Translations under genes and position numbers: made by a program
Shown: in pieces, positions 24,818-30,000 of the stretch
Layout: every line of letters begins with the position of its first letter
How positions within the stretch are numbered: the first letter of the stretch is position 1
Origin: Escherichia coli
GTDB taxonomy: Bacteria > Pseudomonadota > Gammaproteobacteria > Enterobacterales > Enterobacteriaceae
Assembly (NCBI RefSeq): GCF_044324785.1
Contig: NZ_CP172127.1
Length of the DNA: 64,000 nucleotides
Reading direction: 5' to 3' (one strand)
The notes under the pieces: model-generated
The model's input: the letters and a program-made list of their open reading frames with translations, nothing else
The model's database searches: none
Told to the model about the DNA's origin: nothing

Positions 24818-27800
24818 TTATTCCGGGCGCGGCTTCAGCGGGAAGCGGCGGCGCACCAGCACAAAGAACAGCGGCACGAAGTAAATAGCCAGAATAGTGG
24901 CCGAAATCATCCCGCCCATTACGCCAGTACCCACCGCATGCTGACCACCGGAACCGGCACCCGTGCTGGTTGCCATTGGCAATACGCCGAAGATAAATGC
25001 CAGCGAGGTCATCAGAATCGGGCGTAAACGCTGACGGCAGGCGTGGAGCGTCGCTTCAAACAGGTCGTGGCCTTTTTGGTTCATCTCGTTAGCAAACTCG
25101 ACGATCAGGATGGCGTTTTTCGCCGATAAACCAATGACCGTTAACAGGCCCACCTGGAAGTAAACGTCGTTTTCCAGCCCGCGCATCCAGGTTGCCAGCA
25201 GCGCGCCGATAACCCCCAGCGGCACGACCAGCATTACCGAGAACGGCACCGACCAGCTTTCATACAGCGCCGCCAGACACAGGAATACCACCAGCAAGGA
25301 AATGGCGTACAGCGCCGGAGCCTGCGCGCCGGAAAGCCGCTCCTGATACGACATCGCCGTCCACTCCAGACCAAAGCCGTTTGGCAGCTGCTTCACTAAC
25401 GATTCCATAATATCCATCGCCGTACCGGTACTGACCCCCGGTGCGGCTTCCCCTACAATCTCTACCGCAGAATAACCGTTATAGCGTTCCAGACGCGGCG
25501 AGCCTGTCTCCCAGCGTGAGGTCGCGAAAGCAGAGAAGGGCACCATGCCGCCATCTTTATTTCGGACATACCAGAGATTGATGTCATCTGGCAGCATGCG
25601 ATATGGCGCAGCTGCCTGCACATAGACTTTCTTCACGCGACCGCGATCCATAAAGTCATTCACATAGCTCGAACCCCAGGCGGTTTGCAGTGTGTCGTTA
25701 ATATCGTCGATAGCAACGCCCAGCGCCTGAGCTTTACGCTGGTCGATATCAATCTGCAACTGCGGACTGTCGTCGAGGCCGTTATGGCGCACACGGGTTA
25801 GCTCCGGGTTTTCCGCCGCCAGCGCCAGCAACTGGTTACGTGCTGCCATCAGCGCATCGTGACCTGCCCCGGCGTGGTCCTGCAACTCCATATCAAAACC
25901 CGCAGAACTGCCAAGACCGCTAATTGCTGGCGGGCTGCTGGCGATAACGCGAGCTTCTTTAATCTTGTTAAACGCCTTCGTTGCACGCTCGATAATGGCA
26001 AACGAGGTGCCGGTCTTACTGTCGCGTTCGCTCCAGTCTTTCAGGCGGATAAACATTCGCGCCACGTTTTGCCCGTTACCCCCAGGGCCAGAACCAACAG
26101 TGGCAAACACCGACATGATGTTGTCTTTTTCATGGGTGAAGTAGTATTTCTCGATTTGCTCAACGACTTTCAGGGTCTGTTGTTGGGTTGAACCGCTGGG
26201 CAACTGTACCGAGGTAGTAAACATGCCCCGGTCTTCCAGTGGCAAGAACGACGTCGGCAAACGCAGGAACAGGAACACCATGCCGCCAAGCAGCAGGACA
26301 TAAATCACAATCCAGCGCAGGCTACGGTGGAGAATTTTCGCCACCCCTTTTTCGTAGCGTTCGGCGTTGCGGTTAAACATCTGGTTAAACCAGGCAAAAA
26401 AGCCTTTTTGCCCGTGATGCTCACCTTTTTTCAGTGGCTTAAGTAGCGTGGCACACAGAGCCGGAGTGAGGATCATCGCTACCAGTACTGACAGCACCAT
26501 CGCCGCAACAATGGTAATAGAGAACTGGCGATAGATGGCACCGGTGGTGCCGCCGAAGAAGGCCATTGGCACAAATACCGCCGAAAGCACCATCGCAATC
26601 CCGACCAGTGCCCCCTGGATCTGCCCCATCGATTTACGTGTGGCTTCGCGAGGAGTGAGTCCTTCCTCACTCATAATACGTTCGACGTTTTCCACCACCA
26701 CGATGGCGTCATCCACCAGCAGACCGATCGCCAGCACCATCGCGAACATGGTTAAGGTGTTGACGCTGTAACCGAAGGCATAAAGTACGGAGAAGGTTCC
26801 CATCAACACCACCGGCACGGCGATAGTGGGTATCAGCGTGGCGCGGAAGTTTTGCAGGAACAGATACATAACGAGGAAAACCAGAGCGATAGCTTCCAGC
26901 AGCGTTTTCACCACGTCTTCAATGGAGGCTTTAACAAACGAGGTGGTTTCATACGCCACCTTGTATTCCAGTCCATGCGGGAAATACTGCGCCAGCTCGT
27001 CAAGACGATTGAGCACCAGCTCCGCTGTCGCCATTTCGTTCGCGCCGGAGGCCAGTTTTACCCCCAACCCGGAGGCTGGCTTACCATTGAAGCGGCTAAG
27101 ATAATCGTATTTCTCCGCCCCCATTTCGACGGTGGCGACATCGCCCAGCCTTACCTCTGAGCCGTCCTGATTCACCCGCAAGGTGATATCGCGGAACTGT
27201 TCTGGTGTTTGCAGCAGTGACTGGGCGTTAATGGTGGCGTTGAGCGCCTGCTTATCGACGGAAGGCGTACCACCAAGTTGCCCAACCGCAATCTGCGCGT
27301 TCTGTGACTCAATGGCATCAGTGACATCTTTAGCCGTCATCTGGAAACTGTTGAGTTTCGCCGGGTCCAGCCAGATACGCATGGAATATTGCGAACCATA
27401 GGCATCGATATCCCCAACGCCATTCACGCGGCTTAACGGATCCTGAATATTACTGGCAACGTAATCGGCAATATCCTGTTTATCCATCGAACCATCGGTA
27501 GAGACGAAGGCAATGGTCAGAATGTTGGTATCGCCGGTTTTACGCACCGTCACGCCCTGATTTTGCACTGCCTGCGGTAACTTTCGCATGGCAGATTGCA
27601 GCTGGTTTTGTACTTGCTGCACGGCTTCGTCCGGATCGGTGCCTGCTTTAAAACTTAAAGTGACAGATGCCTGACCGGTGCCGCTGCTCTGAGATGACAT
27701 ATACATCAGATTATCGAGACCGGTCATATTTTGCTCGATAACCTGGGTCACGGTGTTTTCCAGCGTCTGGGCCGATGCGCCGGGATAGTTAGCGGTCACT

Positions 27801-27931
27801 CGCACATTCGGTGGCGCGAGATCGGGGTATTGTTCAACGGGCAATGAGAAAATCGCCAGGGTCCCTGTCAGACACAACAGGATTGCCAGCACCCAGGCAA
27901 AAATGGGGCGATCAATAAAGAAATTCGCCAT
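24818..27931 (-). CDS. acrD: RND multidrug efflux pump AcrD (aminoglycoside efflux)
   Basis: 1037 aa, 12-TM RND transporter matching E. coli AcrD. Confidence 0.96.
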
Positions 27932-28001
27932 TAAAAGAGGACCTCGTGTTTCTGCGTATCGTTGTAGGCTTGACTTGCTTCACTGTAGCGGCAAGGTACG
28001 A

Positions 28002-28019
28002 GCCAATCGTGGAGAAAAA
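28002..28019 (-). promoter_or_regulatory. BaeR binding box upstream of acrD
   Basis: Minus strand reads TTTTTCTCCACGATTGGC, one mismatch from the BaeR consensus TTTTTCTCCATDATTGGC; 71-88 bp upstream of the acrD ATG. Confidence 0.6.
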
Positions 28020-28094
28020 AAGGAGTTAATGTAAATTATCATGCCCTTTTATACTGAACTTTAAGGGCCAGTATTCTTTGGTCAGTCGGAGGCA

Positions 28095-29795
28095 TTACAT
28101 CAGCTGGCTTTCCTCACCCTCCGCGGAGCGAAAGCTAATACTCACTAACGTGCCGCCGCCGGAAGGTTGTGAAAAAGTCAGCGTCCCACCCAGCCGTTCC
28201 GCGCGCTCGCGCATGATATTCAGACCATAATGACCTTCGGGTTCTTTCGGTTCACCGATGCCAATCCCGTTGTCTCGAATATAGACTGTGTGATTGCCGT
28301 CCGGCGCGGTGACGCAACTGACGGCGATTTCGCTGGCGTTGGCGTGCTTCATCGCATTCAGCACCGCTTCGCGAATAATTTGCAACAAATGCACCTGCAT
28401 TTGCGCATCCAGCGCCAGGGTTGGCAGGCGGCAGTCGAGGGTCAGTTTAGCGCTGGTTTGATTTTGTAACGTATCCAGCATTTCCCTCAACGCGGAGGGG
28501 AGATCTGCCTGCTGCAGCGTCAGGCGGAAAGTAGTCAACAGCTCGCGTAACTGCCGATAAGCATCATTCAACGCCTGGGAAAAATCGGCCATGATACTTT
28601 GTGCGGTGGTGTTATCTTCCGGTATCGAACGCTTAAGTAACGTCAACTGGATACGTAAGTAAGAAAGTACCTGAGCCAGCGAGTCGTGCAATTCGCGGGC
28701 GATGGTCGCACGTTCTTCCATCAACAGTAACTGCTGAAAATGCTTCTGCGCCTGATTAAAGTACAAACCGCGTCCCAGCATCGACGAAACGCTGTTAAGC
28801 AGCGGTTCTGATGATGAAACGTGACTATTTTGCCAGTGCAGTTCGCCGTAAACCGTCTCTTGCATTGTCACTGGTAAAATCTGCATCGGCAATTCCGGGT
28901 TTGGTTGCCCTTCGCTAATCCGCCAGTTTTCACCGACATTTAACTCCAGATATTCAGCCGCTTCATTGTCGCGCACAATCTGCAAAATATGGCGGAAACA
29001 ATGCACATCAATCTGGCTGGTGTTCAGCGCCTGCGAACACTGATACAACACCTCCAGGCGACGCTTGGCCTCGTGGAGGTCGCGGGTCTTTTCTTCTACT
29101 GACGCTTCCAGCGAACGGTACAATTTATGCAGCTCGCTCGACATCTGGTTAAAGGTTTTGGCAAGCAGGCCAAGCTCATTCGGCAGGCTGGTATCCAGCG
29201 GCGGCGAGTCGAACTGCCCGTGTTCAATACGCTGACTGGCGGTAACCAGCTGATTCAGCGGGGCAACCACCTGATGGCGTATGCGGCGCAAAGTAAAAAA
29301 GACCAGCGTGAAAATACCGATACCGCCAGCCAGGGAAATCGCCACTACCAGCAGCATTTTGCGTTCAGCGTAGTGCTGTAAAGCCAGCACGAACAGGTCT
29401 ATCTGATTAACATAATTATTAATATTGGCCTGATACCACGGCAAATCGCCTTTGCTGAGCCGATTATTCATCTCCAGCCAGTTGGCATTCAGATGCGCAT
29501 AGCGAGTTTTTACTGCTTCTGGCACATACCAGACGTTGAGGTTGGTTAATACCGGTGAATGCAGTGCCTGATGAAATAACTGGCGATGTGCATTGAGTTG
29601 CGGACTGCCACTTTGCAAGTCGTAGCCCAGGCGGTAACTCTGCATACGCAGCGATCCGGCAATATTGATAGCCTCAGCATCGCGCAAACTGCTCGCCAGA
29701 GTTAGCAGAGCGATACCCGTGGAAAGAATCGACAGCAGCACAATGTAAAAAAAGGCCCGGGCCAGACTGGCCGAGACGGGTCGTTTAACAATCAC
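28095..29795 (-). CDS. narQ: Nitrate/nitrite sensor histidine kinase NarQ
   Basis: 566 aa from the GTG at 29793-29795 (GGAG RBS); H-box ELHDSLAQ, HAMP and ATPase domains. Confidence 0.94.
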   Translation of the reverse strand: MIVKRPVSASLARAFFYIVLLSILSTGIALLTLASSLRDAEAINIAGSLRMQSYRLGYDLQSGSPQLNAHRQLFHQALHSPVLTNLNVWYVPEAVKTRYAHLNANWLEMNNRLSKGDLPWYQANINNYVNQIDLFVLALQHYAERKMLLVVAISLAGGIGIFTLVFFTLRRIRHQVVAPLNQLVTASQRIEHGQFDSPPLDTSLPNELGLLAKTFNQMSSELHKLYRSLEASVEEKTRDLHEAKRRLEVLYQCSQALNTSQIDVHCFRHILQIVRDNEAAEYLELNVGENWRISEGQPNPELPMQILPVTMQETVYGELHWQNSHVSSSEPLLNSVSSMLGRGLYFNQAQKHFQQLLLMEERATIARELHDSLAQVLSYLRIQLTLLKRSIPEDNTTAQSIMADFSQALNDAYRQLRELLTTFRLTLQQADLPSALREMLDTLQNQTSAKLTLDCRLPTLALDAQMQVHLLQIIREAVLNAMKHANASEIAVSCVTAPDGNHTVYIRDNGIGIGEPKEPEGHYGLNIMRERAERLGGTLTFSQPSGGGTLVSISFRSAEGEESQLM

Positions 29796-30000
29796 ACGCG
29801 TCTTCTCCACAAAAAATCATTAATGTTCCAGCTCGCTGAAACGCAATTTAGTCAGTGATGGGATTATTTGATCTGCCACAGTTTATAGCGAAATAGTTAC
29901 TTATTCTGGGCACATGAACATTGCCGATTCCCCTGTAAGTCGGGTAATAACAACACTCATATAAAGAATAAGGTTTTTACAACCAAAAAAGAAGGTCGTT

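Follow-up and report, generated by a model that had tools for sequence, protein, structure and literature searches.

The 18-mer TTTTTCTCCACGATTGGC, found on the minus strand upstream of acrD in the analyzed Escherichia coli DNA, corresponds to the BaeR activator box that has already been described for the E. coli acrD promoter and does not represent a new element. The whole 64,000-nucleotide stretch that was analyzed is herein referred to as the window. With a probability of about 85%, this box is where BaeR activates the acrD promoter, which makes acrD one arm of the BaeSR envelope-stress regulon, next to mdtABCD-baeSR and spy. The 18-mer is, moreover, only one part of a larger conserved promoter module.

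The box is located between narQ and acrD, the latter encoding an RND aminoglycoside and multidrug efflux permease. The surrounding features are as follows:

24818..27931, minus strand: acrD coding sequence, identified as an open reading frame, by the NCBIfam AcrD equivalog NF007842 (2265 bits, cutoff 1854), and by the RefSeq annotation of matching genomes

27941..27945, minus strand: Shine-Dalgarno GAGGT of acrD, invariant in 51 Enterobacteriaceae sequences

28095..29795, minus strand: narQ coding sequence, within an open reading frame at 28095..29810 (NarQ equivalog, 929 bits, alignment from residue 7), with its stop codon bordering the spacer

The narQ start is the GTG at 29795 (the N-terminus reads V-IVKRPVSAS). 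Positions 27932-28094 form the complete narQ-acrD spacer of 163 bp, the same length as in K-12; that the 3' end of narQ shares these 163 bp, as was stated previously, is trivially true, the spacer beginning after the narQ stop. From about -125 to the ATG, the spacer is base-for-base identical to that of E. coli K-12 MG1655, and the 61-mer around the box is identical in 5,299 of the 5,401 complete E. coli records. For the acrD-narQ segment (24818-29810), the best identity among 5,426 complete E. coli genomes was only 98.9%, with an identical promoter core; the window may thus derive from Shigella or from an Escherichia lineage absent from the complete genomes. The promoter itself is nevertheless the standard E. 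coli sequence, so that the K-12 literature applies to it and TTTTTCTCCACGATTGGC is the BaeR box already known for acrD.

The published BaeR consensus TTTTTCTCCATDATTGGC, attributed to Nishino (2005), appears in the same form in PMC3915751 and PMC3799227. The minus strand from 28019 to 28002 agrees with this consensus at 17 of 18 positions, the sole mismatch being C for T at position 11 (28009). The preliminary description had located the box at 28002-28019 of the minus strand, one mismatch from the BaeR consensus; the sequence reads accordingly, and the consensus it had used matches that of the two papers. The distance of the 18-mer from the A of the acrD ATG is 71-88 nt on the 5' side, as had also been stated, in agreement with the end of the acrD reading frame at 27931. 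With at most one mismatch to TTTTTCTCCATDATTGGC, the 18-mer is the single match in 64 kb on both strands, and any match was found in 0 of 100 dinucleotide-preserving shuffles. With up to three mismatches, it is still the sole match in the window (0.26 expected).

Around the 18-mer, the following features were delimited. All positions relative to +1 were calculated from TAnAGT taken as the -10 hexamer.

27974..27976 (about 27975), minus strand: predicted transcription start, 6-8 nt downstream of the conserved -10, which would leave a 5' UTR of ~44 nt

27982..27987, minus strand: TACAGT, putative sigma-70 -10 hexamer (TAnAGT), with T, A, A, G, and T ~100% conserved

28002..28019, minus strand: the 18-mer TTTTTCTCCACGATTGGC, a BaeR box of the published type, predicted at about -44 to -27 and identical in K-12

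28005..28026, minus strand: two tandem 11-bp units, aCTCCTTTTTT and TCTCCACGATT, delimited by per-column conservation, with the CTCC cores predicted at -51 to -47 and -40 to -35, a proposed site for a head-to-tail BaeR dimer

28015..28010, minus strand: proximal TCTCCA, predicted at -40 to -35

28025..28022, minus strand: distal CTCC, predicted at -50 to -47

28027..28044, minus strand: conserved upstream extension GCATGATAATTTACATTA, delimited by column conservation and including TTTACA

28035..28030, minus strand: TTTACA, predicted at -60 to -55, 99-100% conserved in 69 distinct sequences

28054..28040, minus strand: curated CpxR site GTATAAAAGGGCATG (PMC9600279, Table S1), predicted at -79 to -65, 0.94 bits

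The conservation of this region was analyzed in loci fetched by a pattern encoding only the AcrD N-terminus MANFFIDRP, with no requirement for the box. In total, 120 loci were obtained, and 78 of them, from across Enterobacterales, were accepted as AcrD orthologues, the first 120 residues being at least 75% identical to AcrD of the window. TCTCCAYG was found upstream of acrD in 73 of the 78 orthologues, compared with 0 of 40 non-AcrD RND pumps from the same pattern search. A second YCTYC was found 10-12 bp before TCTCCAYG in 71 of the 78. Both counts were made without requiring the core; the first alignment group had been chosen on TCTCCA[CT]G, and the column conservation reported for the distal repeat and TTTACA excludes the columns conditioned on that pattern. 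The alignment included 51 distinct Enterobacteriaceae sequences, and a wider set of 69 distinct sequences spanned Enterobacteriaceae, Serratia, Erwinia, Yersinia, Rahnella, Hafnia, and Rouxiella.

In the 51 Enterobacteriaceae sequences, the narQ-proximal part of the spacer is essentially unalignable, with 0.24 bits per column. The block 28044..28005 (GCATGATAATTTACAyTAtCTCCTTwwTTTCTCCACGwTT) has 1.7-1.9 bits per column, with 1.84 bits for the distal repeat, 1.93 bits for TTTACA, and a mean of 1.76 bits over 28020-28044. The TCTCCA core is 100% conserved in the 69 distinct sequences. A chance resemblance to the consensus in a T-rich intergenic region, having no regulatory role, is hardly credible in view of these data. 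Only a handful of sites went into the consensus, and promoters often contain T-rich strings, but the shuffled sequences contained no match at up to one mismatch, the core does not vary among several Enterobacterales families despite lying next to a spacer of such low information, and it is absent upstream of the 40 paralogous pumps. Thus, a chance match is effectively refuted by the conservation data.

Conservation ends exactly at 28005. The 3' GGC of the 18-mer (28004-28002) has only 0.81 bits, the majority base being shared by 84% (G), 41% (G), and 69% (C) of the acrD orthologues. These three bases are common to acrD, mdtA, and spy of E. coli and are not kept among the acrD orthologues. Judged by conservation, the 3' GGC appears to be dispensable, and the published 18-mer consensus may be over-specified at this end. 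The mismatched C at 28009 is itself 98-99% conserved and is an acrD-specific feature rather than a sign of site decay; the neighboring G is 100% conserved. The preliminary description had considered the envelope-stress input to be placed precisely by the 18-mer. The identity of the BaeR box stands, but its boundaries do not: the 3' GGC is poorly conserved, and ~25 nt of conserved sequence upstream had been missed.

Several individual loci may be mentioned. Five Erwinia loci (L029, L046, L062, L065, and L078) have the same module upstream of acrD (TTTACAyTTTCyyCTCAATTTCTCCACGATT). The "BaeR box" given for E. amylovora in PMC3915751, TTCTTCACGATTACTGGC, appears to be ~2 nt off frame relative to the orthologous alignment with the E. 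coli box, as judged from the other Erwinia sequences. The five AcrD orthologues without the core include a metagenome-assembled genome (L024), in which the AcrD N-terminus is 92% identical and the upstream sequence is unrelated, and the endosymbiont Candidatus Fukatsuia symbiotica (L113), which has a degenerate version of the box, ATCTTCCATATTTAATCGCGTAAAAT.

Within the conserved block, a second CTCC was found exactly 11 bp upstream of the box CTCC (aaCTCCTtttttTCTCCAcg). The cores at 28025..28022 and 28014..28011 thus form an 11-bp direct repeat, about one helical turn apart. By itself, CTCC-N7-CTCCAYG at one mismatch occurs in the window about as often as expected by chance (2 matches vs 1.7 expected), and the tandem-repeat argument therefore rests on conservation. 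On the plus strand, positions 28020-28034, the reverse complement of the BaeR core, read AAGGAG-TTA-ATG-TAA, that is, a Shine-Dalgarno-like sequence, a start codon, and an immediate stop. This arrangement probably just follows from the CTCC motif, and the 3 nt between AAGGAG and ATG are fewer than a good ribosome-binding site requires. Upstream of the repeat, TTTACA reads GTAAA, a CpxR half-site, on the opposite strand, and in most other species it is enclosed by a 5-bp inverted repeat, GATAA...TTATC. It was considered whether TTTACA could be a half-site of CpxR or EvgA, or else a degenerate third BaeR repeat (9-bp offset); none of these assignments was established.

The position of the block relative to the promoter is fixed. 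In 68 of the 69 distinct sequences, TAnAGT follows TCTCCA at exactly 22 nt, whereas TCTCCA and the ATG are anywhere between 84 and 300 nt apart. The box is therefore tied to the promoter and not to the start codon; from this spacing, it appears to belong to a promoter and would cover its -35 position (about -44 to -27). Thus, the 71-88 nt to the ATG given in the preliminary description are correct as a distance, but the meaningful anchor is the -10 element 22 nt downstream. No mapped acrD transcription start site was found in the searchable literature, the Salmonella AcrD paper being without one. The hexamer at the predicted -35 position, ACGATT, matches TTGACA at 2 of 6 positions. A strict sigma-70 scan of 27800-28250 found no consensus promoter, TACAGT being missed because it has no -35, and the promoter was predicted from conservation instead.

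For activators of the OmpR/PhoB family, a layout is known in which the activator substitutes for the -35 element. The acrD layout would be the one expected for such an activator replacing the -35. Of the features of a class II-like site in this family, tandem half-sites about one helical turn apart were found, as well as the location at the -35 position and the fixed distance to the -10. The pho-box of PhoB is an activator site of this kind: it replaces the -35 and consists of tandem 11-bp units, each with a core and a less conserved stretch, at a fixed distance from the -10. The acrD site would resemble the pho-box in having two tandem 11-bp units, no recognizable -35, and a fixed -10 distance, and the less conserved stretch after the core is T-rich in the distal acrD unit. 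The two differ in the core (CTCC vs CTGTCAT) and in the regulator (BaeR vs PhoB). A further similar site is the DzrR box of desAB in Dickeya and Burkholderia, where the footprinted site consists of two direct CTCCAT repeats 11 bp apart (PMC10052836). Like the acrD box, it is located upstream of an RND efflux operon answering envelope stress. The regulator is a different one, DzrR being closest to AdeR and reported to be phosphorylation-independent, and the organisms and the pump are different.

The fixed distance to the downstream -10-like hexamer also bears on whether the block acts as RNA, for instance as a narQ terminator, as the leader of a longer acrD transcript, or as a small RNA, rather than as DNA bound by a regulator. 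The block is located just downstream of narQ, and the run of seven T at 28021..28015 looks at first sight like the tail of a terminator. An intrinsic-terminator scan of 27800-28250, however, revealed no terminator-like hairpin, the predicted fold of the spacer RNA is no better than that of shuffled sequences (z = -0.31), and an Rfam search of 27700-28300 gave no match at E <= 1. Additionally, the block persists while the upstream neighbors and the spacer sequence differ among genera. An RNA-level role is accordingly considered highly improbable, and such readings were dropped on the fold being indistinguishable from shuffles.

The dependence of acrD on BaeSR in vivo is known from K-12 and BW25113, the promoter of which is identical to that of the window. 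In the RNA-seq data of the BaeR ChIP-exo study, deletion of baeR lowered acrD expression 7.5-fold under ethanol (log2 -2.91, p = 2e-39) and left it unchanged without stress. In parallel, mdtA and spy fell in the deletion strain under stress (-4.0 and -5.8). Tungstate induced acrD in the wild type but not in a baeS deletion strain or in the kinase-dead BaeS N364A mutant, and baeS mutations raised both acrD expression and the temocillin MIC. Purified BaeR of Erwinia shifted the orthologous acrD upstream fragment (246 bp) and not tolC, the shift being a smear that does not localize the site. Direct BaeR regulation of acrD in E. coli is also stated in the secondary literature. Of the features of a BaeR box, the consensus match, BaeSR-dependent acrD expression in vivo according to the literature, and conservation in orthologous promoters were thus found here; on direct binding, the Erwinia gel shift and the K-12 ChIP-exo data disagree. 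The suggestion in the preliminary description that the box fits BaeSR control of acrD agrees with this dependence, with the K-12-identical promoter, with the conserved core, and with the similarity to the spy and mdtA boxes.

Of the two best-established BaeR targets in K-12, spy has a perfect box with 0 mismatches (TTTTTCTCCATAATTGGC), and mdtA has a box with 1 mismatch (TTTTTCTCCCTTATTGGC). The boxes of acrD, mdtA, and spy have a common TTTTTCTCC..ATTGGC string, and stress induction of all three genes is lost upon baeR deletion. In mdtA, as in acrD, a second CTCC (CCTCCA) is located 10 bp, or one helical turn, upstream of the box TCTCCC, and a similar TTTCAT/TTTACAT stretch precedes the repeat. 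The repeat spacing is 11 bp in acrD, 10 bp in mdtA, and 22 bp in spy, where the second TCTCCA is located upstream. Unlike the consensus, acrD has CG in place of T-D, and this CG is itself conserved. Unlike the acrD box, the spy box is located far upstream of the core promoter. At mdtA, BaeR ChIP-exo peak_5 (2153931-2153967) maps to TCATAATTCCTCCATTTTTCTCCCTTATTGGCTGGCT and covers the 18-mer together with the upstream CTCC repeat. At K-12 spy (L003 2765-2844; record 1825677-1825843), two BaeR ChIP-exo peaks flank the perfect 18-mer at 1825764-1825781 without covering it. A BaeR motif in the form of TCTNCANAA repeats was reportedly proposed by Yamamoto in 2008, and the distal spy peak overlaps a TCTGCAAAA element matching this motif.

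In contrast to mdtA and spy, acrD has no ChIP-exo peak. This experiment, performed with 5% ethanol, is the only genome-wide in vivo study of BaeR binding available; no BaeR peak was found in it upstream of acrD, and its authors class the gene as indirectly regulated. Accordingly, the block could be a functional conserved activator site that BaeR does not occupy in E. coli, with BaeR acting through another regulator that binds to the block or through CpxR. The absence of acrD from the BaeR iModulon, its additional dependence on CpxR (log2 -1.87), and the GTAAA half-site opposite the invariant TTTACA also point in this direction. CpxR co-regulates acrD, and its curated site is located in the same spacer. 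Nevertheless, indirect action is unlikely. No GTAAA was found on either strand of the 18-mer, nor was the tandem GTAAA-N5-GTAAA of the CpxR box; GTATAAAAGGGCATG is a separate site further upstream, only moderately conserved and a poor match to the CpxR consensus. By sequence, the acrD core groups with the boxes of mdtA and spy, and in the same study the BaeR dependence of acrD was strong and, as for these two genes, specific to stress. The binding of Erwinia BaeR to the orthologous fragment likewise argues for direct action, and an absent thresholded peak is weak negative evidence. Because of the RNA-seq data of that study and the conservation described here, the missing acrD peak is probably a false negative at a weaker site. 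The comparative evidence favors direct regulation over the "indirect" label derived from ChIP-exo.

Under direct regulation, phosphorylated BaeR, a winged-helix regulator of the OmpR/PhoB family, would bind as a head-to-tail dimer to the two 11-bp direct-repeat units, (T/a)CTCC-N6 and TCTCCACGATT, at 28026..28005. The promoter-proximal unit would take the place of the -35 hexamer, at which ACGATT is found. Bound BaeR could then recruit sigma-70 RNA polymerase to an otherwise weak promoter with the putative -10 TACAGT at 27987..27982 and a start near 27975. CpxR bound further upstream, at ~28054..28040, may augment this activation. The sequence match, the deep conservation, and the fixed spacing to a -10-like element are observed, and the BaeSR dependence of acrD in vivo is established by the literature; the binding of a dimer to the tandem repeat, the identity of the -10 and of the transcription start, and the contact with RNA polymerase are predictions from these observations.

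One base of the distal unit distinguishes E. coli from its relatives. Position 28026 is A (ACTCC) in the window, in K-12, and in essentially all complete E. coli genomes. It is T (TCTCC) in 69 of 69 distinct sequences of other species, including E. albertii and cryptic-clade "E. coli". The "E. coli" record L031 carries T at this position and is only 91.5% identical across acrD-narQ. A polymorphism within E. coli was considered and rejected; no complete genome has T in an otherwise identical 61-mer. The A at 28026 might weaken the BaeR site in E. coli. Tentatively, a joint reading may be suggested in which the functional unit is not the textbook 18-mer but a composite module of ~40 nt at 28044..28005, in which TTTACA and both 11-bp CTCC repeats are joined and kept 22 nt away from the -10 across Enterobacterales, and in which the species-wide, derived T-to-A change of E. 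coli at 28026, an otherwise invariant position, lowers BaeR occupancy and would explain the ChIP-exo miss despite direct regulation. This combination is possible rather than probable.

Both the regulatory link between BaeR and acrD and the box itself are already present in the literature. The additions made in this study are modest: comparative support for direct regulation, better boundaries of the element together with a predicted promoter geometry, and the E. coli-specific base at 28026. AcrD exports aminoglycosides and, with mutated BaeS, contributes to resistance to temocillin and other beta-lactams. Given this role of AcrD in resistance, the exact BaeR site is useful for reading promoter variants in clinical isolates.
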